Virus genome (UHGV): UHGV-0179428
From: a virus
DNA: 64,000 nt
Reading direction: 5' to 3' (one strand)
Below, one piece after another: positions 1,092 to 52,512 of the stretch (its first letter is position 1; every line of letters starts with the position of its first letter). Made by a program: the position numbers and the translations under genes. Under the pieces are notes generated by a model. That model saw only the letters and a program-made list of their open reading frames with translations, was not told where the DNA came from and made no database searches.

Positions 1092-1601
1092 TTAGAAGAA
1101 CGGCTGATTTGGAATGACAGCGTACTCTAAAATGAACATGTGCTCTGGGGCGTCTTCTTTACGCCAGACTTTGTGTGTTATCACAAGTTTTTCCAGAATC
1201 GTTAGAAAACTACGCTGGCAGTATGTGTTTTCGCCAAGTAGCAGTTTCTGAAGTTCTACAGTAGCGTCCATATACGCCTGTTTAAAGACTAAGCTACGGT
1301 TATACTGTCCAGTAAAATTCCAAAGCAAGACTTTCCCTTCTTCGGTTTCTTTTACCGTTGGTCGTAAACCACAAATCCACAGCAAGGCAAGGTTGACGTT
1401 CCAGTCAAACTCTAAACCTTCTTCTTCGTCATCACCGAATGCTGTAGGTAAAGCATCGTAAAATTCGTGCTTCTCTGCGAACTCTTCATCCGATTTAATC
1501 TCGTCTTCGATGCTGCTTCGGACGATACCGTAAATGTCTTTCGCGGTTAGCTGTGCGGCCTTTGTAATGCCTTTATACCAATCGGTTACAACGATGCTCA
1601 A
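1092..1601 (-). CDS. hypothetical protein
   Basis: ORF track; TTG start preceded by GAGGAG; start overlaps stop of upstream gene (translational coupling). Confidence 0.65.
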   Translation of the reverse strand: MSIVVTDWYKGITKAAQLTAKDIYGIVRSSIEDEIKSDEEFAEKHEFYDALPTAFGDDEEEGLEFDWNVNLALLWICGLRPTVKETEEGKVLLWNFTGQYNRSLVFKQAYMDATVELQKLLLGENTYCQRSFLTILEKLVITHKVWRKEDAPEHMFILEYAVIPNQPFF

Positions 1602-2296
1602 AGGGTAACTCCTCTATCGGTTGGAAAACTCATGTTTATTGTATCCCAAATTTTACTAACTTCCGCCAATTGAATCTGACGTGATGTTTTCTTCGCAAAC
1701 GCAAGCTGACGTGGGGCCGAGCCCACAACAACAGGCACATCGATTTTCGCGCTATAGAACGCGGCATCTTTCATAAAGCCTGCCATTTCTCGTTGTGCTG
1801 CTCGAGATTTGCTTTTGATTCGCGTGTGAGCGCCACTTTCACCCCAGTGGTAAGCTAACGCAACTTCAGCCATGGTGGGCTTGCGTTTGAGTCGTTTGGT
1901 TAACCCCTTCTCAAGATGTTTAACATACGCGGTAGCCAGCAAAACAGCGTTACGCGGATTATACAAATCGGTGTTCTGACTAAGACCTAATTCTTTTCCA
2001 TAAAGCTTTAGCAGATTGCGCTTGGTACTTGGAAGCATCTGTACCAGGCTGTGCGCTCGTGTGCTTTTGTTGTAAGCCTTGGGATCAAAACGTGATTCGC
2101 GATAAATCAGCGTAATCATCAGTTTAGGATCAACGCCTTGTTTTCGTGAGATTTCCACAATTAACGGACTGACTTTTTCGAACCGATGTTGGATTTGTGT
2201 AAACTCACGCTGATGCTTAGAATGTGGCGTTGACGTTGACGCCTGTGCGTTAAACGCGAAAAGTGTTACCAGTAAAAGAAAGAAGATACGAAACAT
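1598..2296 (-). CDS. putative lytic transglycosylase (SLT-domain) with N-terminal signal peptide
   Basis: ORF track 1598-2323; preferred ATG at 2296 preceded by GGAGAAAC; N-terminal hydrophobic signal-like segment; ESRFDP...LVQMLP motif resembling the SLT catalytic region. Confidence 0.55.
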   Translation of the reverse strand: MFRIFFLLLVTLFAFNAQASTSTPHSKHQREFTQIQHRFEKVSPLIVEISRKQGVDPKLMITLIYRESRFDPKAYNKSTRAHSLVQMLPSTKRNLLKLYGKELGLSQNTDLYNPRNAVLLATAYVKHLEKGLTKRLKRKPTMAEVALAYHWGESGAHTRIKSKSRAAQREMAGFMKDAAFYSAKIDVPVVVGSAPRQLAFAKKTSRQIQLAEVSKIWDTINMSFPTDRGVTL

Positions 2297-2396
2297 TTTG
2301 TTTCTCCAGTTGGATTTATACATTTCCGTATTCCGTAAGACGAAATGACGGCGCGGACAGCTAATACTCCTTTGTTGTGTGCCCTAATGATAATAT

Positions 2397-4388: not shown

Positions 4389-4574
4389 CTAATTCCGCCA
4401 TTCGCATTCGCGTTGACGCCAAATTGAACCCCACGATAGTTTAATCAGATAAGATGAAACTACCCATAAAATCATCACCACACAAAACATGACATAAAGA
4501 ACCGCTAGAATGGACATGAAGCCAAACCCTGCCGCATCCACAATACGACGGAACCAATCAGTTTGCATAAACAA
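4389..4574 (-). CDS. small membrane protein, hypothetical
   Basis: ORF track; hydrophobic core; AGGAG RBS; overlaps the end of the upstream ATPase gene. Confidence 0.5.
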   Translation of the reverse strand: MFMQTDWFRRIVDAAGFGFMSILAVLYVMFCVVMILWVVSSYLIKLSWGSIWRQRECEWRN

Positions 4575-7062
4575 TTTTTACTCCTTCGTTATACACCGCA
4601 GGCAATGTCACCCCTTCCGGTTCGATGACACAGTACGATGCTTCATTAAGTTTAGAATGAACCTCGGCTTCGTGGGAGACTACCAACAGTTGAGAAAATT
4701 CTCCCGAGTTTGCTAACGTTTTAATAAAGCCGACCAGGTTGTTACGGTGCTCCTCATCCATACCTTCCGAAGGCTCATCCAAAAGCAATGGAAACTGATG
4801 CAACTTCAGCGCTTTGTACGCGGTCAGCCTGAACATCAGATTAAATATCGCACGCTGCGCCTTAGACCCTTTACGCACGTCAGGAACAGGCTCAGGATGC
4901 GTTTTTAGCTGGACAGGAAAAGTATAATCCAAATCACCGTCAGTGAGATCGCAAGGCATGACGCGCATGGGGTACGTCCAGACCTGTTCGATATAACGCG
5001 TCATTAACTCTGTGATTCTAACGATAGCGTTGTAAAAATACTTTCTAAGCACACCCTTTTCTGGCGAGAAGGCTTGAATCATCAGTTTGTTATTGAACTG
5101 CTGGGCTTGCAAGTCAGCAAGTTCGCGTTCCAAACTGTTGAGCTGATTCAATTCATTTTCCATCTGACGATAACGTTCGCGTGCGGTTGTAAAAGCATCC
5201 AGCTTCCCTTCTCGTGCACGTAAGAGTTCCTCGACGACTGTATTTGTCAACGTAACCTTAACATCACTCTCTAACCGTTCGAATAACGCACTGAAATCAT
5301 CTACAGCACGTTTAACATTCACCAGATAGGTAAGTGTCGTGTTAGCCAGTTCGTGCTCTCTACGACGCATTGAGAGCATCTCTGTGGCTTTACCTAATCG
5401 CGACTGTTGGAAAGCGATTTTCTGTTGTAAAGCACCATCGACGTTACCAACGGCCGCTACGGCATCCTGCCATTCTTTTTCCGCTTTCACTAACCGTTGT
5501 CGGGTTTCATGGTACTCAATAGCAGAGTACAACTCACTGTCAAACGCTGCGCATAGGCTCCCGAACTGCTCGCGTGATTCTGTGAAAACGTTACGTTCTT
5601 GCAAACGCTTAAAGAACATGCTCAATACCGGGTCCTTTGAATACGTCAGTACAATCTCACGAACCTGTCGCATATAAGTTACATCGGATTCTAACTCAAC
5701 ACGATCGCGTAATAGGGCCTCTAACTGCGTTTGTAGTTCCGTGCGCTGCTGTTGTTGTCCGCGAATCGAAGACTCAAGTTCAGGTAAAGAACGTGTAACA
5801 CCAGGCCGAAACTTAAACCGACACTGCGGACAATCCACTTCTGCTGTTTCTAAGTAGTGATTACGCTCATGATTTAAATTCTGTAAAACGTTCTCCACTC
5901 GCTGGAGTCTATCCCGCAACCCTGCGGTTTTTTGATCCATCACCAGAAGCCGTTCTTCCAAAACATTGAGTTTTTCGGTTGAATGAATTGCGTCCAGTGT
6001 TGTTCCTAACCGTTGCCCCCAGACACGCGCATCGGTAGCCGCACGAAGTTGGTCTAAATTGACGTTGTCGTTAAATAGACCCGGAAAGAGATGCTCGGTG
6101 TCCCATTTGGTAAGTAACTCACGTAAACGTGCCAGCGTATTCTTGAGACCTTCGTGATTCCGCATCAGGTAGTCTTGTCGTGTCGACTCATCCATTAATA
6201 ACGACAAGTCTTTATTCAACATCGATACCTCTGTTTCAGTAGAAACAACAGCTTCGCGGGCGGTCGCTTCGTTTTGTCGCGCGACCAGTATCTGTTCATC
6301 AGTAGGCAATCCACCACGATGTTGTAATATTGCGTCGATGGTTGGACCCAAGCTGTTTAATAACGCTTGGATTGTTTCGATGGTGACGGCACGATTTAAT
6401 CCTGGCAACTGTTCGATTTCTCGGTTCAGTTCACGTAAATCCGATTCCAAACCTTTTAATCTCGTCGCTAACTGCTGCCGTTCTTCCTCGTTCTCAATAA
6501 CGCGCGTCCGTAATTCGGCGATCTTACGGCTGGTGATTTCAATACCCCCATTTAAAGCAGTAAGGTTTTTACGCAAACGTTGATAAAACCCTAACGCGTA
6601 AGTGAGGTCAGAGGTACTTAAACGGTAAAACCACTTGCGGCGTAGTTCGGTTCCCGCGTCAGTTAACAACACCTCACCATTTAATAGTTCTTTAATCTCT
6701 TTCGTAATACCCGTGATTTCTTCAACACGGGAGTTGTAGACTTTCGCATTACCTTGCTCGACGATCTTTGTCCCCGTGGTCAAGTTCTCAATATCACAAA
6801 CCAGTGAGTTGCCTTTACGGGCAACTTTGAATCGATAGCGTTGATCGCCAACTAAACAGTAGTTTGTGTAAGAACCTCCGTCCCTGAATTCGGTTTTAGC
6901 CGGTGCTAAGGGTAAGAACACAGACAGTAGACTGGTTTTCCCGCAGCCGTTCCCACCCAGGATAATTGTTGTCGGTGACTGGATAGTGAAATCGAAGGTT
7001 TCAATTTCATGTAACCCCATCCCCGTAAAACCTTTGAGTATAATGCGTTCAACTTTTAGCAT
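4558..7062 (-). CDS. SMC/Rad50/SbcC-like ATPase with coiled coil
   Basis: ORF track 4558-7278; preferred ATG at 7062 after GGAGGTG; N-terminal Walker A GGNGCGKTS, long central coiled-coil region with CPQC, C-terminal Walker B LLLDEP and VVSHE. Confidence 0.7.
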   Translation of the reverse strand: MLKVERIILKGFTGMGLHEIETFDFTIQSPTTIILGGNGCGKTSLLSVFLPLAPAKTEFRDGGSYTNYCLVGDQRYRFKVARKGNSLVCDIENLTTGTKIVEQGNAKVYNSRVEEITGITKEIKELLNGEVLLTDAGTELRRKWFYRLSTSDLTYALGFYQRLRKNLTALNGGIEITSRKIAELRTRVIENEEERQQLATRLKGLESDLRELNREIEQLPGLNRAVTIETIQALLNSLGPTIDAILQHRGGLPTDEQILVARQNEATAREAVVSTETEVSMLNKDLSLLMDESTRQDYLMRNHEGLKNTLARLRELLTKWDTEHLFPGLFNDNVNLDQLRAATDARVWGQRLGTTLDAIHSTEKLNVLEERLLVMDQKTAGLRDRLQRVENVLQNLNHERNHYLETAEVDCPQCRFKFRPGVTRSLPELESSIRGQQQQRTELQTQLEALLRDRVELESDVTYMRQVREIVLTYSKDPVLSMFFKRLQERNVFTESREQFGSLCAAFDSELYSAIEYHETRQRLVKAEKEWQDAVAAVGNVDGALQQKIAFQQSRLGKATEMLSMRRREHELANTTLTYLVNVKRAVDDFSALFERLESDVKVTLTNTVVEELLRAREGKLDAFTTARERYRQMENELNQLNSLERELADLQAQQFNNKLMIQAFSPEKGVLRKYFYNAIVRITELMTRYIEQVWTYPMRVMPCDLTDGDLDYTFPVQLKTHPEPVPDVRKGSKAQRAIFNLMFRLTAYKALKLHQFPLLLDEPSEGMDEEHRNNLVGFIKTLANSGEFSQLLVVSHEAEVHSKLNEASYCVIEPEGVTLPAVYNEGVKIVYAN

Positions 7063-7093
7063 ACCCACCTCCATAAAGACGGAGTGTGGTGTA

Positions 7094-7137
7094 AAAAGAA
7101 AAAAAAATAAAGAAAGGGAGAACCCGAAGGTTCTCCC
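7094..7137 (-). terminator. rho-independent terminator
   Basis: GGGAGAACC-cgaa-GGTTCTCCC hairpin followed on minus strand by a long T tract. Confidence 0.7.
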
Positions 7138-7142
7138 AAACG

Positions 7143-7751
7143 TTATTTGGTGTAGAGGTGATAACCCATTGAAGTCCAATAATCGACGTTCTTCGTGTTT
7201 TCTACCCAAACCTGTCCCGCCTTTGTGGCTAAGACTTCCATTGTCAATGTACAGATCAGATTTGTTACCGGGATACAATTTCCAGGTGTAACATCATCCA
7301 GATAAACCGGGTATAAAAACGGCGATTTAATGGATTGGTACGGGTAAGAATAGTGGCTACCGACCTTCCACCCTTCTTCTACAGGACAGAGATTAAAAGT
7401 GCGTGTTTCAGGAACTGCGTTTTCAGAGATCCAGTTAACAACATCGGCTTTAATTCGATCGTGGTCGATATAGTAGAACACAACACGTTGTGGGATACTT
7501 GTGGTACCAGCCGGGTCTAAAGCCTCCAACGCCTTAAAAGGCGACGTTAACAATGTTGTACTGTTCTCAAGCGCGTAAACCAACTTTTCGTAAGCAGTCG
7601 GTGTTTTACGTTTAAAATATTCCCGTAAGCGAGGGTATGCCAGGAATCCCTCTACTTCTTCTTCCATTAAGTCAATGAATAAAGGCGTATGCGAAAAACG
7701 CTCTGCATTTTGCATCGCTTCAAGAAAACGAACTAATGTAATTTCGTTCAT
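7143..7751 (-). CDS. hypothetical protein
   Basis: ORF track; AAGGAAAG RBS; flanked by terminator hairpins. Confidence 0.7.
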   Translation of the reverse strand: MNEITLVRFLEAMQNAERFSHTPLFIDLMEEEVEGFLAYPRLREYFKRKTPTAYEKLVYALENSTTLLTSPFKALEALDPAGTTSIPQRVVFYYIDHDRIKADVVNWISENAVPETRTFNLCPVEEGWKVGSHYSYPYQSIKSPFLYPVYLDDVTPGNCIPVTNLICTLTMEVLATKAGQVWVENTKNVDYWTSMGYHLYTK

Positions 7752-8311: not shown

Positions 8312-8340
8312 GTAAAAAGGACCCCGGACGTACCGGGGTC
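8312..8340 (-). terminator. rho-independent terminator
   Basis: GACCCCGG-acgta-CCGGGGTC hairpin then T-rich run on minus strand. Confidence 0.6.
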
Positions 8341-8350
8341 AAGACTACAC

Positions 8351-8740
8351 TCAATGATCTAATTCAATAGCACCAGCCATCTTGCCCCGTTCTTCGATAA
8401 CGATCAGATAACGGTCGCGAGATTTGCTTTTAGCGAGAGTTAAGACAACGGTAGGGTCGCACGTTTTCGTGGTGATAGGAAGAACCTCTCTTGCGACGGA
8501 ATCGAGCAGAAAGTAATAACCTGCGGGACACATTGTGCCACCGTCAGCTTTTACCAGAATATAGCGCCCGTCTGCGCCGACTTCTTGGCAGATTGTTTCA
8601 CCGACTTCGCAAACTTCAAACCCCGGAGGATTGTACTGATAATCGGTATTGTTGTTTGGGGTTAGCAGTAAATCGTTAACTTGGGTAGATGCTGCTACAC
8701 TCAGGGAGAAGAAGAATGCTAAAACGCAGACGAGACGCAT
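8351..8740 (-). CDS. secreted/periplasmic protein with signal peptide, hypothetical
   Basis: ORF track; N-terminal MRLVCVLAFFFSLSVAAST; AAGGAG RBS. Confidence 0.7.
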   Translation of the reverse strand: MRLVCVLAFFFSLSVAASTQVNDLLLTPNNNTDYQYNPPGFEVCEVGETICQEVGADGRYILVKADGGTMCPAGYYFLLDSVAREVLPITTKTCDPTVVLTLAKSKSRDRYLIVIEERGKMAGAIELDH

Positions 8741-8750
8741 GAGTTACTCC

Positions 8751-9161
8751 TTAAATTTTAAGTTTATCCATAGCTACAACGATAGGTTTTTCCGAAGTGT
8801 CTAATATCCCTACCATTGGCACACCATCTACGACTTCGAAGAATGGTTTGTTATTACCAGAGCACAGACGTTTGTCGTTGTATTCGAGACGCTGGGCCTT
8901 CCACGTTTCGAGGTTGAGTACGGACATTGGGCTGTCGTAGCACCAGGCACCACCCTGCTCAACGATGAATACGTATCTGCTACCTTTGTATTTAAACAGA
9001 CTCTTTGCCTGACAGTACAAGCCGTCGATTTCCGTACAATAGAAATCATCGGTGCTATTGACGTACTTAATATTGTCTGGCAACTGTATTGTTTTTGCTG
9101 TAGTGTTGACAGAGAATAGAACAGCCATTGCAATGAGGAGAGTATTAATGATAGTTTTCAT
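8751..9161 (-). CDS. secreted protein with signal peptide, hypothetical
   Basis: ORF track; N-terminal MKTIINTLLIAMAVLFSVNTTA; TAAGGA RBS. Confidence 0.7.
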   Translation of the reverse strand: MKTIINTLLIAMAVLFSVNTTAKTIQLPDNIKYVNSTDDFYCTEIDGLYCQAKSLFKYKGSRYVFIVEQGGAWCYDSPMSVLNLETWKAQRLEYNDKRLCSGNNKPFFEVVDGVPMVGILDTSEKPIVVAMDKLKI

Positions 9162-9172
9162 GATAAAAGTCC

Positions 9173-9658
9173 TTAGTATTTAGATTGTTCTACGTACTTC
9201 TTAACCAGGTAAGCGAATTCGGCAACACCGATATCACCGAACCAAATCAGATAACCGGGGTCGATGTTGTAGTAATAGCCGACGAGTTTCTTGGTGTGTG
9301 GGTTGTATAGCGTTACGATGTATTCCCAACCACAAGCGTTAGCTTTACAACCGCCACTTTCAATCCAGATTTTGTTGTTGATGTTTACCGGATACATGTT
9401 ACCGCCAGGGCCATCCATGTAACCTTTAGAGCCGAACATACCATCCAGCCCCACAGGGTCTAATGTTTTATCAACAACGGCTTTAAACGACTTATCGGTA
9501 TCGTACAAGTCGTTGATGTTTGGGCACGCATTTGGCTGACCTTCCCAAGCGTTTCCATCACAGGTAAGCAGTTCGTCTACGGAGGCCGCATCTACACTTG
9601 GTGTGGCACCGATAAACAAGAAAACCAGAAAGAACATCAGTGTGTGTAAACGTTTCAT
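9173..9658 (-). CDS. secreted protein with signal peptide, hypothetical
   Basis: ORF track; N-terminal MKRLHTLMFFLVFLFIGATPSVDA; AAAGGAG RBS. Confidence 0.7.
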   Translation of the reverse strand: MKRLHTLMFFLVFLFIGATPSVDAASVDELLTCDGNAWEGQPNACPNINDLYDTDKSFKAVVDKTLDPVGLDGMFGSKGYMDGPGGNMYPVNINNKIWIESGGCKANACGWEYIVTLYNPHTKKLVGYYYNIDPGYLIWFGDIGVAEFAYLVKKYVEQSKY

Positions 9659-9676
9659 TGTAACTACTCCTTTAGA

Positions 9677-10063
9677 TTATTCGGCAGGACGATTTAAGGT
9701 AACGCGTCCGATTAATTCGGCGTTGTGAAAGAAGTCCACAGCGGTATAGTTACCAACTGATAGCGGATGGATACTAACTGACATTACCTTTGGTTGTTCG
9801 CAAGCGATATCCGTCAGACGTTGGTAGACTTGTGCACGGGTGTCAGCAATGAGTAATCCCGTACACGTTTCACCACGCACTAAACGATAAACTTGCAGTT
9901 TACCGAAACTGCGCATTAACGTAGGCGTCTCGTCCGGGTTGATAATCGGTGAGTCAGGAGCCGGTTCGTAATAGCGGACATCCGAATCACCGAAAGCATA
10001 AGTGCCAGTAATTCCGACTGCACAGAAAATAATGATAGTATAAAGTATAGTTCTGATATTCAT
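9677..10063 (-). CDS. secreted protein with signal peptide, hypothetical
   Basis: ORF track 9677-10069 (GTG); ATG at 10063 gives MNIRTILYTIIIFCAVGITGTYA signal-like N-terminus. Confidence 0.6.
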   Translation of the reverse strand: MNIRTILYTIIIFCAVGITGTYAFGDSDVRYYEPAPDSPIINPDETPTLMRSFGKLQVYRLVRGETCTGLLIADTRAQVYQRLTDIACEQPKVMSVSIHPLSVGNYTAVDFFHNAELIGRVTLNRPAE

Positions 10064-10091
10064 TTTCACGCACTCTAAAAAAGATTAATAG

Positions 10092-10553
10092 TTATTTGTT
10101 AGGACGGGTGTGTCCACAGTTCTGGAAGAAAGTTTCAGACAGACGTTCGCCTTCTACGGTAAAGTTAGCGGCATCGTTACCATTGATACTCACACTGAAA
10201 GTTTTGGCATTACCGATAGCATTAACGAAAGCAACCCAAGCGTGTTCTGCTTTGTCACTACCGTCCACGGTAGGGATGTTATAGGTTTTGCCGTTTACGA
10301 CAATATCCATCGTGTTATCTTCAGCGTTAGTTGCACCTACGGGTTCACCGTAATACCAGACCATGCGACCGTAAAATTTGCGATTCGCAGTTTCAGTGTC
10401 ACAGTTGATAGACAGTCCGTTTCCGGCGGTGTCTTCAATTTCGTAAACTGCCTGGCCAGGGTTTTGTATTTGTTCCCAGCTGTTGATAGCGGCGTGTGCA
10501 GTATTGAGGCCGAAAGTTAAAATGGTTATTAAGAAAGTGATAAAGGTTTTCAT
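10092..10553 (-). CDS. secreted protein with signal peptide, hypothetical
   Basis: ORF track; N-terminal MKTFITFLITILTFGLNTAHA; AAGGAG RBS. Confidence 0.7.
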   Translation of the reverse strand: MKTFITFLITILTFGLNTAHAAINSWEQIQNPGQAVYEIEDTAGNGLSINCDTETANRKFYGRMVWYYGEPVGATNAEDNTMDIVVNGKTYNIPTVDGSDKAEHAWVAFVNAIGNAKTFSVSINGNDAANFTVEGERLSETFFQNCGHTRPNK

Positions 10554-10599: not shown

Positions 10600-10971
10600 T
10601 TAAATAACTGTGTTGGGTAATGCTTTAATCTGTGTATAACTATCTCCGATACCTCTTATCATTTCCAGACGCTCTTCTGTAGAAAGGCTTTGGTTAATGT
10701 CTTTGTCAAGATTGAACAGTGTCAAGAGTTTTGCAATTGCAACCGTCAGGTTGTCGGACAGCTCGTTGTTTTTACGCCATTCTTCGTTACGGAAAATAGA
10801 GATAAGGTCTTTCGCCTGGCCTTCAGCGTGTGGTTTGGCTAACTGCGCGTCACGCTGTTCGATAAGGTATGCTTCGTTAGTAAGTAAACGTTTCAGGTTT
10901 TCTGGGTTAGTGGCAGCGCGAGTAACGATCATTAATACAACAAACGGGTCTTTAAATAATTCGTTTTTCAT
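10600..10971 (-). CDS. hypothetical protein
   Basis: ORF track; TTTTAGGAGAACTAAAG-ATG; preceded by conserved promoter-like leader module. Confidence 0.7.
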   Translation of the reverse strand: MKNELFKDPFVVLMIVTRAATNPENLKRLLTNEAYLIEQRDAQLAKPHAEGQAKDLISIFRNEEWRKNNELSDNLTVAIAKLLTLFNLDKDINQSLSTEERLEMIRGIGDSYTQIKALPNTVI

Positions 10972-10979
10972 CTTTAGTT

Positions 10980-11050
10980 CTCCTAAAATGGTTTTAGTTA
11001 AGTGAGTGCTTTTGTACTCTCACCTAAGTAATATATATCTGAAATTATTT
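10980..11050 (-). promoter_or_regulatory. conserved promoter-like motif plus 5' leader hairpin (copy 1)
   Basis: Motif TAAGTAATATATATCTGAAAT (plus strand) next to 11-bp-stem hairpin TTAAGTGAGNG-loop-CTCTCACnTAA and AGGAG RBS; about 80 nt nearly identical to 48075-48150. Confidence 0.5.
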
Positions 11051-11063
11051 TTAATATTAACGA

Positions 11064-11097
11064 ACAAAAAAATAAAAGGTGGGGGTTTACCCCCACC
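11064..11097 (-). terminator. rho-independent terminator
   Basis: GGTGGGGG-ttta-CCCCCACC hairpin then T tract on minus strand. Confidence 0.65.
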
Positions 11098-11101
11098 GAT
11101 G

Positions 11102-11680
11102 TTATACATCGAACCGGTACTGCCGGGAGTTAATGAGGAATTCGGTATTCAGCTCAATCCATTCGAGTAAATCACCCAACGGTAATCGGTTTGGGTTTTC
11201 TAACTCAATAGACGCTACCGGATAAGAGTTTACTAATTCCGTAATTGCCTCAATACCCTCTTGCGTTCCGTCGTCTTCTAAGGTGATTGTAAACGGCATA
11301 TCGGTACGTCCCGCATTAGGATTGTACAAACTGACTTTCGTTGCTTGCACAAACGCAGTCAGGTCGTCTCGCATAATGCGAATATCCGGCGCTAGAACCA
11401 CCCAGAGATGTTGCCCTGGCTGGAGTTTACGTTTTGCGTAATTTAAGAAAGGACTTGCCGTCAAGTTCTCTAAACTACAACAGATGTTACGTAAATGGAT
11501 TCCGCGTGGATCTTTGTAATCCACGTCGAAAATCCCCACAGGTTCATTCGCTGCCTGTTTTATCAGAAAGGCTAATACCGTGTCCGCTCTTTCTGGTAAG
11601 GAAAGCTCTATTCCCTCAAGCTCCCCATCGACGAGATTTTCTAACCAAACGTCTTTTCGCATTTCTATTAATCGGTACAC
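11102..11680 (-). CDS. hypothetical protein
   Basis: ORF track; GTG start after GAGGTGG. Confidence 0.65.
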   Translation of the reverse strand: MYRLIEMRKDVWLENLVDGELEGIELSLPERADTVLAFLIKQAANEPVGIFDVDYKDPRGIHLRNICCSLENLTASPFLNYAKRKLQPGQHLWVVLAPDIRIMRDDLTAFVQATKVSLYNPNAGRTDMPFTITLEDDGTQEGIEAITELVNSYPVASIELENPNRLPLGDLLEWIELNTEFLINSRQYRFDV

Positions 11681-15278: not shown

Positions 15279-15332
15279 GGGACTGAAGTACCAGTTCAGT
15301 CCCTATTCACTTAAGTAAAATATATCTGAAAT
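15279..15332 (-). promoter_or_regulatory. conserved promoter-like motif plus hairpin (copy 4) in divergent intergenic region
   Basis: GGGACTGAA-gtacca-TTCAGTCCC hairpin followed by CACTTAAGTAAAATATATCTGAAAT. Confidence 0.4.
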
Positions 15333-16529: not shown

Positions 16530-16739
16530 ATGTCTATTAAAGAGTTCTCTTCTGCTGAGCATATTCCAGAAGAGTTTAAGAAAATCGGTAACGTTAGCGC
16601 CTTCGGCGACACCGTTGATCATGTAACGGGTAAGCTGGCTGCTGAAGCTGAAAAAATTGGCGGCGACGCATTCAAAGTTATCGGTATTTCCGGCAACAAC
16701 AAACTGCACGGTAACGCAATTGTCTACAAAAAAGACTAA
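16530..16739 (+). CDS. DUF1471 (YdgH/BhsA-like) domain protein lacking signal peptide
   Basis: ORF track 16512-16739; ATG at 16530 after GGAGAGCTGTT; KIGNVSAFGDTVDHVTGKLAAEAEKIGGDAFKVIGISGNNKLHGNAIVYK fits the DUF1471 pattern. Confidence 0.5.
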   Translation: MSIKEFSSAEHIPEEFKKIGNVSAFGDTVDHVTGKLAAEAEKIGGDAFKVIGISGNNKLHGNAIVYKKD

Positions 16740-48074: not shown

Positions 48075-48150
48075 ATTCTCCTAAAATGGTTTTCGTTAAG
48101 TGAGAGCTTTTGTACTCTCACTTAAGTAATATATATCTGAAATTATTTTT
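48075..48150 (-). promoter_or_regulatory. conserved promoter-like motif plus 5' leader hairpin (copy 2)
   Basis: Near-identical copy of the 10980-11050 block upstream of an unrelated gene. Confidence 0.5.
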
Positions 48151-52461: not shown

Positions 52462-52512
52462 TAATGGAGTGAACGTAAATTTCACTCTCCCCTAGGTAAT
52501 ATATATCTGAGA
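52462..52512 (-). promoter_or_regulatory. conserved promoter-like motif plus hairpin (copy 3)
   Basis: CCTAGGTAATATATATCTGAG with adjacent GAGTGAA...TTCACTC hairpin upstream of 51587-52438. Confidence 0.4.

Follow-up and report, generated by a model that had tools for sequence, protein, structure and literature searches.

Ivy (E. coli YkfE, PDB 1gpq/1xs0; P. aeruginosa, 1uuz) is a periplasmic inhibitor of C-type lysozyme, and its classical role is in lysozyme tolerance (PMC2267010). Small exported, beta-rich proteins, some of them with disulfides, are also found in the lysozyme inhibitor families MliC/PliC and PliG. Among phages, the T4 protein Spackle (gp61.3), counted together with Imm among the early periplasmic or membrane exclusion proteins, is a periplasmic protein, a helical bundle of 75 residues, which inhibits the T4 tail lysozyme allosterically and confers superinfection exclusion (PMC7677548). 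The CP4-57 island of E. coli K-12 carries the genes of two adjacent exported proteins, the lipoprotein YfjS and YfjT; functional data on either were not found in the literature. Phages of the phiKZ/SPN3US type have been studied mainly for the cytoplasmic shelter known as the phage nucleus, and their effects on the host envelope are almost unknown.

The cassette analysed here, referred to as p5 to p1, lies in such a phage and shares features with each of these systems. Its products are, like Spackle, small phage proteins with signal peptides and disulfides that are predicted to be directed to the periplasm. Spackle, however, is the product of one gene, whereas the cassette comprises five genes of three families, and in place of a helical bundle p3 is predicted to have the alpha/beta Ivy fold and p1 and p2 to be all-beta. 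None of the PHROG or Pfam matches named Spackle, no sequence or fold relationship with it was found, and the cassette may be likened to Spackle in mode of action only, not in family membership. Similarly, the cassette proteins resemble MliC/PliC and PliG in being small, exported and beta-rich, but were placed outside these families by hhalign.

The locus and its transcription unit

The window, i.e., the whole stretch of 64,000 nucleotides that was analysed (UHGV-0179428), was found by sequence comparison to be a jumbo phage of the SPN3US/phiEaH2 kind, of E. coli/Salmonella type, which fits its initial description as virulent. The first-pass annotation had also reported five back-to-back minus-strand genes of 129–161 aa, and these were borne out within 8351–10553. 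They are preceded by a leader gene (10600–10971, minus strand; 123 aa), the first gene of the unit, which lacks a signal peptide, belongs to phrog_27024 and was found only in the window and in L021. The five genes that follow, all on the minus strand, are p5 (10092–10553; 153 aa), encoding a predicted exported protein of the YfjT family; p4 (9677–10069; 130 aa if begun at a GTG, although a 128-aa product begun at the ATG at 10063 is more likely), the ortholog of SPN3US gp180; p3 (9173–9658; 161 aa), encoding a predicted exported Ivy-fold protein; p2 (8751–9161; 136 aa), encoding a predicted exported four-cysteine all-beta protein, the ortholog of SPN3US gp182 and a paralog of p1 and gp181; and p1 (8351–8740; 129 aa), encoding a predicted exported four-cysteine protein, the ortholog of SPN3US gp183 and probably a relative of YfjS. 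Strong ribosome-binding sites, which had been claimed for all five, were present for p5, p3 and p1 (AAGGAG, 7–8 nt upstream of the start) and for p2 (TAAGGA), but not for p4, whose GTG start has no good Shine–Dalgarno sequence. Two codons further on, the ATG at 10063 has only a weak AGAGTG in front of it, and the equivalent ATG is the called start of p4 in a relative (128 aa). The region had no megablast match among 50,697 phage records, and nothing relevant on SPN3US gp180–183 or on SPN3US signal peptides was found in the literature.

Both boundaries of the unit were marked by hairpins of the intrinsic-terminator type in a terminator scan of the window. The upstream one, a terminator-like hairpin on the minus strand at 11078–11097 with eight stem pairs (seven G-C) and a following T run, ends the gene at 11102–11680. 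The downstream one, also on the minus strand (8320–8340), consists of GACCCCGG-TACGT-CCGGGGTC followed by CTTTTT and is situated 10 nt past the stop codon of p1. Between the upstream hairpin and the leader gene, a promoter-like motif, TCAGATATATATTAC, occupies 11028–11042 on the minus strand, inside a longer conserved block (TTTCAGATATATATTACyTAGGTGAGAG). The window holds three exact copies of the motif and one copy with a single mismatch, all intergenic and oriented toward downstream genes, and the exact 14-mer was found upstream of the cassette in SPN3US, phiEaH2, Huxley, Asesino, SNUABM_29, SPAsTU and IMG/VR relatives. Early promoter motifs have been described for jumbo phages with RNA polymerases of their own, and the AT-rich motif at 11028–11042 matches that description (PMC7598289); it is probably an early promoter for the virion RNA polymerase. 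Literature searches with the motif string were uninformative. A sigma-70 promoter was also considered as the driver of the unit and was dropped, since none was found on its coding strand. The leader gene and p5 to p1 would thus be read as one transcription unit, running from the conserved motif to the terminator.

Export signals and protein families

Signal peptides were assigned with an in-house heuristic together with homology to known exported proteins, the sequence criteria for Sec export and signal peptidase I being a positive n-region, an h-region of at least 10 residues and small residues at −3/−1. All five proteins were assigned such a signal by this heuristic: their N-termini carry one or two positive charges and no acidic residue, followed by an uncharged hydrophobic core (best 10-residue Kyte–Doolittle mean of 2.5–3.3) and by small residues at −3/−1, with predicted cleavage at AAS/T (p1), TTA/K (p2), VDA/A (p3), TYA/F (p4) and AHA/A (p5). 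With the same heuristic applied throughout, eight of about 80 greedily chosen window genes were signal-peptide-like, and five of the eight were contiguous. The permutation probability of a run of at least five such genes among the window genes was P = 1.4e-4, which argues that the clustering of signal peptides is not random and upholds the first-pass view of five consecutive signal-peptide-like N-termini. Orthologs in which the sequence of the signal peptide has diverged still score as signal peptides. Additionally, the mature parts of p1 to p5 carry even numbers of cysteines (4, 4, 4, 2 and 2, respectively), which are either invariant or kept in register among the homologs of p1, p3 and p5, and three of the families are homologous to exported bacterial proteins (the Ivy fold, YfjT and the lipoprotein YfjS). 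The predicted targeting to the periplasm is therefore well supported by the signal peptides, the conserved cysteine pairs and the homologies. By inspection, a lipobox (L-[AS]-[GA]-C) is absent from all five, suggesting that they are not lipoproteins. SPN3US gp180, the p4 ortholog, has an LAAC, which is not conserved.

The same hydrophobic segments, of 18–24 residues, are long enough to span a membrane, and the N-termini could accordingly be uncleaved anchors that hold the proteins in the inner membrane or in the membrane vesicle that surrounds the injected genome at an early stage of infection by phiKZ-like phages. This reading is regarded as very unlikely, because canonical −3/−1 sites occur in all five proteins and TYA/F is kept among p4 orthologs, because the mature parts have conserved cysteine pairs, and because homologs of p3 and p5 are described as periplasmic by NCBI or in the literature. 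Signal peptides of the Sec/signal peptidase I type together with conserved cysteine pairs indicate instead that the products most likely end up free in the periplasm as small, soluble proteins with disulfide bonds. No transmembrane segment beyond the N-terminal one was found in any of the five, and a lipobox spanin pair is also absent. A holin/spanin lysis cassette was rejected on these grounds, the sole hydrophobic segment of each protein being N-terminal and without a lipobox.

The searches of Pfam, NCBIfam and PADLOC returned nothing significant for p1, p2, p4 and p5, and relationships were established by profile comparison and with PHROGs. PHROGs 5248 and 8968 match the p1/p2 family (E = 5e-31 and 1e-32, respectively), p1 being phrog_5248 (E = 5e-31), and a tblastn search with p1 found matches in 53 jumbo-phage records. 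Cysteines C44, C51, C71 and C94 are invariant in p1 homologs and in register across p1, p2 and SPN3US gp181, which matched one another in hhalign at 97–99%; these three are assigned to one four-cysteine family by profile match and cysteine register. The structure model of p2 is all-beta. The p4 protein corresponds to phrog_9424 (E = 1e-40) and has two conserved cysteines; its orthologs have signal peptides in all relatives examined. In hhalign, p1 was aligned with p4 across the mature domains (79% probability, E = 1.7e-5) and with the E. coli lipoprotein YfjS (85%, E = 6.7e-6), although p2–p4, gp181–p4 and p4–YfjS each stayed below 10%. Both p4 and YfjS retain just the second cysteine pair of the four-cysteine family and are probably distant members of the p1 family. 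YfjS differs from p1 and p2 in being a lipoprotein with two cysteines, p1 and p2 having four and being predicted to be soluble. An island protein, Ec180, was tried as a further member of the p1 family and ruled out (hhalign <12%); no phage homologs of it were found. When every cassette family was compared by hhalign with E. coli MliC and PliG, matches were obtained only over the signal peptides and at no more than 46% probability, so that an identity as MliC/PliG-type inhibitors was ruled out for the four proteins other than p3. No fold was recognised for p4, p2 or p1.

The assignment of p5 to the YfjT family draws on a BLASTP match to K-12 YfjT (E = 6e-14 over 133 residues), in which a cysteine pair and a tryptophan are shared and Cys51 and Cys146 are conserved, and on the precomputed PF27224 (YfjT) match, which was scored on close homologs (75–97% identical) and not on p5 itself. 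Searches of Protein Data Bank sequences with p5 and with the YfjT profile gave noise only. Taken by sequence, the five products fall into three families, the four-cysteine family of p1 and p2, the Ivy-fold p3 and the YfjT-like p5, with p4 probably to be placed with p1 and p2; paralogs probably make up three or four of the five genes.

The relationship of p3 with Ivy is more distant. Against the NCBIfam Ivy model NF007443, p3 scored E = 1.3e-3 (18.6 bits), far below the curated cut-off of 180, and identity with Ivy is 14–17%; hhalign against E. coli Ivy gave 32% probability (E = 4.8e-4). A Pfam scan with E up to 1 returned no family, a sequence search of the Protein Data Bank sequences gave noise, the p3 profile gave weak Ivy lines (E ~1.2), and the model had no match in BFVD, a collection of predicted viral protein structures. 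What p3 and Ivy have in common is a signal peptide, a similar size and a six-residue loop, probably closed by a disulfide, in a C-K-x-x-x-C-G context, which in p3 is Cys104-Lys-Ala-Asn-Ala-Cys109, aligns with the Ivy loop and lies at the tip of the same beta-hairpin in an alpha/beta structure model of moderate confidence (pLDDT 66.5, built from 12 sequences). The p3 protein is assigned to the Ivy fold. It differs from Ivy in having an additional N-terminal cysteine pair (Cys33/Cys45) and in its genomic setting, a jumbo phage and mobile islands rather than the chromosomal ivy locus. It differs also in the loop itself, which is CKANAC in the window p3 and CKPHDC in Ivy, the histidine being replaced by Asn107 and both the proline and the aspartate by alanine. 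The Ivy loop histidine is said to engage the active site of lysozyme. Position 107 is asparagine in every phage copy, that of the window included, histidine being found only in some of the E. coli island alleles (CKAHAC). With the key histidine, the proline and the aspartate all replaced, C-type lysozyme is an unlikely target of p3.

Conservation in phages and in E. coli islands

All of the related jumbo phages examined, which span several genera, have the trio p4-p2-p1; the remaining slots vary between close relatives by replacement, duplication or truncation. Most relatives, among them SPN3US, phiEaH2 and Huxley, lack both p3 and p5, and neither gave a tblastn match in the 50,697 phage records. 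Homologs of p5, p4, p3 and p2 were, however, found in E. coli chromosomal islands, in the gene order of the phage, and DNA similar to p3/p4 was detected in 2378 of 5426 complete E. coli genomes (~44%). In the islands, the cassette is preceded by the exact 14-mer of the phage motif and has a GC content of 42–45%, compared with 52–56% for the island flanks and 44.8% for the phage. The phage-native promoter motif and the phage-like GC content point to transfer of the E. coli cassette from phage to island. The yfjS–yfjT pair of K-12 CP4-57, whose equivalent slot in related islands can hold p5-, p4-, p3- and p2-like genes in the order of the phage, resembles the cassette in encoding adjacent exported proteins, to which p5 (same family) and p1 (probable relative of YfjS) are related, but it has no phage promoter motif and a GC content of ~51%. 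For p3 and p2, dN/dS values of 0.08–0.23 were obtained in phage–phage, phage–E. coli and E. coli–E. coli pairs, indicating that both genes are under purifying selection in phage and islands alike. The alleles are diverse (57–99% mutual identity), and the cassette is conserved yet fast-changing.

The presence of p3 and p5 in many bacteria and their absence from the phage records, together with the differing gene content among close relatives, could mean that the genes are passengers acquired from host islands, which have no role in the phage and are tolerated in a large genome. This is considered highly improbable, as the p4-p2-p1 core with its signal peptides is present in every related phage examined, dN/dS among the phage copies is 0.08–0.2, and the phage-native motif and GC content indicate the opposite direction of transfer for the E. 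coli cassette. The cassette is a conserved, probably early, periplasm-directed module of the phiKZ/SPN3US lineage, in which p3 hints at control of cell-wall hydrolases; in close to half of the complete E. coli genomes it has a phage-like composition, carries a phage promoter motif and is under purifying selection.

Candidate roles in the periplasm

The function preferred here, which is advanced tentatively and judged somewhat short of probable, is that of proteins made early to bind or inhibit targets in the periplasm and so shield the envelope of the infected cell, in a superinfection exclusion like that of Spackle. The unit would be expressed early by the virion RNA polymerase, and the periplasm of the infected cell would be loaded with protein binders or inhibitors guarding the envelope through a long infection. 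Acting as Ivy does, p3 would push its disulfide-clamped hairpin loop into the catalytic cleft of a muramidase or a lytic transglycosylase. Its likeliest target would be the cell-wall-digesting tail enzyme of a superinfecting phage; the module would in that case work like Spackle, the proposed logic of inhibiting the tail lysozyme of an incoming phage being the same. Other targets, in the envelope or on phages, would be bound by the four-cysteine and YfjT-like proteins, and the cassette would have been taken up by E. coli islands for the protection that it gives cells against such phages. Because p4, p2 and p1 have neither a recognisable fold nor MliC/PliG similarity, the inhibitor idea rests on a single member, p3, which is not part of the core.

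Several envelope-directed functions of a generic kind had been offered in the first-pass annotation. The inhibitor fold and loop of p3 lend concrete, if indirect, backing to two of them, superinfection exclusion and lysis timing; nothing in the analysis favours receptor masking. With lysis timing, p3 and perhaps others would restrain the SLT enzyme of the phage or host autolysins in the periplasm until programmed lysis. A candidate enzyme is encoded at 1598–2323, where a predicted signal peptide (AQA/S) is followed by an SLT domain (Pfam E = 3e-15) and the product matches the transglycosylase phrog_4067 (E = 8e-47), and Ivy proteins have reportedly been found to inhibit a bacterial lytic transglycosylase. 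Nevertheless, p3 is missing from most relatives, which excludes it as a core part of the lysis machinery, the cassette follows an early-type motif at a distance of ~6 kb from the SLT gene, and lysis timing offers no reason for purifying selection on the island cassette of E. coli. It is accordingly held to be an unlikely role.

Immunity proteins are typically small, disulfide-bonded and periplasmic, and the cassette might likewise encode orphan periplasmic immunity proteins that shield the infected or island-bearing cell from external cell-wall hydrolases, such as animal lysozymes in the gut or peptidoglycan-attacking effectors that arrive by type VI secretion or as colicin/pesticin-type toxins. 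The classical role of Ivy in tolerance of C-type lysozyme (PMC2267010), the diversity of the alleles and the occurrence of the cassette in mobile islands of 44% of complete E. coli genomes, human and animal isolates included, are in line with such a role. However, the phage copy and many island alleles have lost the lysozyme-binding histidine, ivy, mliC and pliG are already present on the E. coli chromosome, the neighbourhood showed no genes for toxins or effectors, and the payoff for a lytic phage would be less direct. Immunity of this kind is therefore rated as rather doubtful, with a modest chance of being right.

Superinfection exclusion, as preferred here, can be extended to the islands, which would have taken the early exclusion cassette of a jumbo phage whole, with its virion RNA polymerase promoter, and would now use it to defend against that phage lineage. 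This is a speculative extension that is more likely to be wrong by a good distance; if true, the periplasmic cassette would represent a widespread, so far unrecognised module of immunity to jumbo phages, carried by ~44% of complete E. coli genomes. In a bolder form, the retained phage promoter may let the invader's own polymerase induce the island copy. The comparison ties uncharacterised island genes of the YfjS/YfjT type to a phage function, which makes them testable in terms of sensitivity to jumbo phages. SPN3US-like phages are candidates for therapy, and a common host module that possibly excludes them is of practical interest. In line with the preferred role, some islands of this kind also carry anti-phage genes, an argument from guilt by association; CP4-57 of K-12, the holder of yfjS–yfjT, also encodes AbpAB and RnlAB.

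The five-gene unit and its upstream motif

Five adjacent minus-strand genes were read from the ORF list at 8351-8740 (p1, 129 aa), 8751-9161 (p2, 136 aa), 9173-9658 (p3, 161 aa), 9677-10069 (p4, 130 aa from a GTG start) and 10092-10553 (p5, 153 aa), with gaps of 10-22 nt between them. The true start of p4 is probably the ATG at 10063, and the matching ATG is the start called in one relative. The N-termini of all five products carry one or two basic residues and no acidic ones, followed by a hydrophobic core free of charges and by small residues at -3/-1 of a putative cleavage site (AAS|T, TTA|K, VDA|A, TYA|F and AHA|A for p1 to p5, respectively). No lipobox was found in the five sequences inspected. 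The signal peptides were called with our own heuristic, backed by homology to exported proteins; it marked 8 of the ~80 genes in the window, five of them contiguous as p1-p5 (P = 1.4e-4 for such a run, permutation test). ORF list and heuristic confirm the first-pass annotation, which had described five back-to-back minus-strand genes with signal-peptide-like N-termini. It had also credited each with a strong ribosome-binding site, which held for p5, p3 and p1 (AAGGAG, 7-8 nt upstream) and for p2 (TAAGGA) but not for p4, whose site is weak. The mature parts of p1 to p5 contain 4, 4, 4, 2 and 2 cysteines, respectively, those of p1, p3 and p5 being invariant or in register in family alignments; such even, conserved numbers are as expected for proteins folding in the oxidising periplasm. 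That the N-termini are uncleaved membrane anchors was considered very unlikely. The sequence data show an operon-like unit of small, predicted exported proteins belonging to three families.

Together with a 123-aa gene lacking a signal peptide (10600-10971, minus strand), p1-p5 lie between two terminator-like hairpins on the coding strand, one at 11078-11097 forming the upstream boundary and one at 8320-8340, 10 nt past the p1 stop codon. Directly after the upstream hairpin stands a promoter-like motif, TCAGATATATATTAC (11028-11042, minus strand). Four copies were found in the window, three exact and one with one mismatch (11028-11042, 15315-15329, 48126-48140 and 52496-52510), all on the minus strand, intergenic and oriented toward downstream genes. 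No sigma-70-type promoter was found on the coding strand of the unit. The exact 14-mer CAGATATATATTAC directly precedes the cassette in SPN3US, phiEaH2, Huxley, Asesino, SNUABM_29 and SPAsTU, as well as in IMG/VR relatives, and one close relative has a single mismatch to it. A review of jumbo-phage RNA polymerases places a highly conserved AT-rich sequence of ~10 nt upstream of early operons and notes that every such motif put to the test served the virion RNA polymerase as an early promoter (PMC7598289). We infer from the sequence that the cassette is an early operon; TCAGATATATATTAC, conserved across several genera of relatives, is the probable consensus of early promoters in this lineage.

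Protein families of the cassette

The products of p1, p2 and p4 cross-matched in PHROG searches. With extended alignments, hhalign gave 98% for p1-p2, 97% for p1-gp181 and 99% for p2-gp181, gp181 being a paralog in SPN3US, and four cysteines are in register across the three proteins. This family is small, with 33 representatives at E < 1e-3 among 1.84 billion proteins; the 19 that were read are 129-164 aa long, with hydrophobic N-termini and the cysteine pattern. For p2, AlphaFold2 gave an all-beta model (pLDDT 61.8), which nothing in the Protein Data Bank matched convincingly. The mature domain of p4 aligned with that of p1 (79% probability, E = 1.7e-5) and keeps the second cysteine pair only; its membership of the four-cysteine family is probable but unproven. 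The E. coli K-12 lipoprotein YfjS also matched the p1 profile (85%, E = 6.7e-6), sharing the motif C-x-G-x-Y-Y-x-L-[LV]-D...C. By sequence, p5 is a YfjT-family protein: its close homologs are assigned to Pfam PF27224 "YfjT", it matches K-12 YfjT in BLASTP (E = 6e-14), and a cysteine pair is conserved between them. YfjS and YfjT are named, and no functional data on them were found in literature searches.

The most informative member of the cassette is p3. It matches the NCBIfam model of Ivy, a known family, only weakly (E = 1.3e-3, far below the cut-off), and the p3-family profile aligns CKANACG of p3 with CKPHDCG of Ivy (1gpq, 1xs0). The p3 model places this loop at the turn joining strands 96-105 and 108-119. 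On the weak match, aligned loop and modelled hairpin, p3 is assigned the Ivy fold and an Ivy-like loop architecture. It falls short of the curated family threshold, and every phage copy has Asn at the position of the loop histidine; in island alleles the loop is CKAHAC, CKSNAC, CKANAC or CKANTC. Likeness of the non-p3 families to Ivy, MliC or PliG was rejected, hhalign revealing no resemblance. Among the 50,697 phage records a single one, that of Escherichia phage PHB10 (MK524177.1, 14591-14950), has a canonical Ivy homolog; annotated as hypothetical, this protein is 38% identical to the E. coli one (E = 8e-23).

Distribution in jumbo phages and bacterial islands

No close DNA match to the region was found at megablast level among the 50,697 phage records. 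The p1 protein matched 53 jumbo phages there at 34-51% identity, including SPN3US, phiEaH2, Asesino, Stratton and Huxley/Machina, and is carried at 80-100% identity by IMG/VR contigs of 221-225 kb. These matches, together with an E. coli record, identify the window as an SPN3US-like jumbo phage, whose host is probably E. coli. That record (NZ_CP173450.1) is a 221,873-bp circular "plasmid" of strain 98232 from human urine, a relative of the window's phage with the same cassette and 78% DNA identity over p4-p3; it points to a clinical isolate in a carrier state, or to co-isolation.

The syntenic SPN3US genes are gp180-gp183, all four with signal-peptide-like N-termini, and gp184, gp185 and the SMC-like gp186 follow directly, as in the window. 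The window's gp186 ortholog (4558-7278, minus strand), an SMC/SbcC-like ATPase, is listed from an upstream TTG that overlaps gene 7143-7751; its real start is probably the internal MLKVERI..., as in relatives. All relatives examined, Machinavirus-like contigs among them, have the p4-p2-p1 trio, each member with a signal peptide, upstream of gp184/gp185/SMC. Between p4 and p2, Seoulvirus and Erskinevirus have gp181 and the window's clade has the Ivy-like p3; in this clade p4 is preceded by one or two YfjT-like genes. Phage p3 alleles form two groups with only ~64% identity between them, a distance as large as that to the E. coli alleles. In one close relative (L015) p4 is truncated, p2 is missing and the slot-3 gene combines a p3-resembling signal peptide with a different mature domain. 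This alternative gene was observed at L015 7427-7879 and in an E. coli island (L035 5407-5859); its signal peptide (MKRLHALMF...) resembles that of p3, the mature domain is gp181/p2-like at its N-terminal end, and it looks, by sequence, like a domain swap behind a shared signal peptide. The cassette combines a conserved scaffold with contents that are exchanged rapidly.

Homologs of p3 (59-66% identity) sit in CP4-type islands of E. coli chromosomes, flanked on one side by dynamin, RdcB(YjcZ) and patatin genes and on the other by DUF932, antirestriction, RadC and CbeA/CbtA genes. In blastn the similarity (~72%) runs upstream into p4 and reaches the promoter element, and p4-p3 DNA matches were found in 2378 of 5426 complete E. 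coli genomes, almost always chromosomal. One island keeps p4 as a pseudogene; others carry, in phage order, a YfjT-like gene (77% identity to the second of the YfjT paralogs in the phage relative L014), a truncated p4 (58-63%), an Ivy-like or alternative slot-3 gene and an intact p2 homolog (65%). The alignments show a cassette conserved in the jumbo-phage lineage and also present in bacterial islands. The exact CAGATATATATTAC precedes it in three sampled islands, with one mismatch in a fourth; its GC content is 42-45%, against 52-56% for its islands and 44.8% for the phage; and p4, which like p2 is core in the phage lineage, is truncated or degraded in the sampled islands. Motif, low GC and decayed p4 point to transfer of the E. 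coli cassette from phage to island. The motif is absent upstream of K-12 yfjS-yfjT (GC ~51%) and from a Yersinia rohdei island, where a gene 73% identical to the phiEaH2 gp181-like protein adjoins a YfjT gene (pair 45%, locus 47% GC), so that traffic may run in both directions. For p3 and p2, dN/dS was 0.08-0.23 in every pair compared, whether of two phage copies, two E. coli copies or one of each; on these values both are functional in phage and islands alike. That p1-p5 are passenger genes was rated highly improbable.

Signal-peptide proteins of 180 aa (L004 7098-7640) and 209 aa (L035 4343-4972), with charged C-terminal halves, head the cassette in two E. coli islands. No phage homolog of the 180-aa protein was found, and hhalign does not support placing it in the p1 family; in some island alleles its N-terminus is fused to the Ivy-like gene (223-227 aa).

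Proposed role and other genes of possible envelope function

Envelope-acting exported phage proteins are a known kind, T4 Spackle and Imm among others. No report on SPN3US gp180-183 was found in literature searches, and neither the cassette nor its promoter nor its occurrence in E. coli islands seems to have been described in the searchable literature. Ivy acts in the periplasm and inhibits C-type lysozyme in the nanomolar range (PMC2267010), and inhibitors of its class insert an inter-beta-strand loop into the hydrolase active site (PMC7677548). The p1-p5 products would be made early as periplasmic binders or inhibitors guarding the envelope of the infected cell, and p3 would act by the Ivy mechanism, its loop entering a hydrolase active site. 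The loss of the loop histidine makes a C-type lysozyme an improbable target; the best guess would be a phage tail muramidase or transglycosylase. The module would then work like T4 Spackle, which inhibits the gp5 tail lysozyme in the periplasm and keeps out superinfecting phages (PMC7677548). Spackle-like protection of the envelope is the favoured reading, though a tentative one. It would explain why islands with anti-phage genes keep the cassette; K-12 CP4-57 carries AbpAB and RnlAB. Immunity to external hydrolases (lysozyme, type VI secretion effectors or colicins) is more plausible in islands than in a lytic phage, and was considered doubtful.

A possible exported endolysin is encoded in the window at 1598-2323 (minus strand); its 241 aa comprise a signal peptide that looks cleavable (AQA|S) and an SLT lytic-transglycosylase domain (Pfam E = 3e-15; phrog_4067 E = 8e-47). 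By restraining this enzyme p3 might act in lysis timing, but p3 lies outside the core gene set and retention of the cassette in E. coli would be left unexplained; this role is considered unlikely. The neighbouring genes 546-1025 and 4389-4574 have transmembrane segments. A 163-aa predicted lipoprotein (40660-41151, lipobox LAGC) is encoded by a lone plus-strand gene amid minus-strand genes and matches phrog_9559, with no Pfam match found. The 69-aa product of 16530-16739 (plus strand), a gene also present in L014 and L015, has a YdgH/BhsA/McbA-like (DUF1471) domain (Pfam E = 1.4e-9) but lacks a signal peptide; in bacteria, proteins of this family are exported. Finally, two tiny adjacent minus-strand genes (60752-60949 and 60946-61158) encode a 65-aa product with a signal-peptide-like N-terminus (ANA|E), for which no PHROG match was found, and a 70-aa product with one transmembrane segment.
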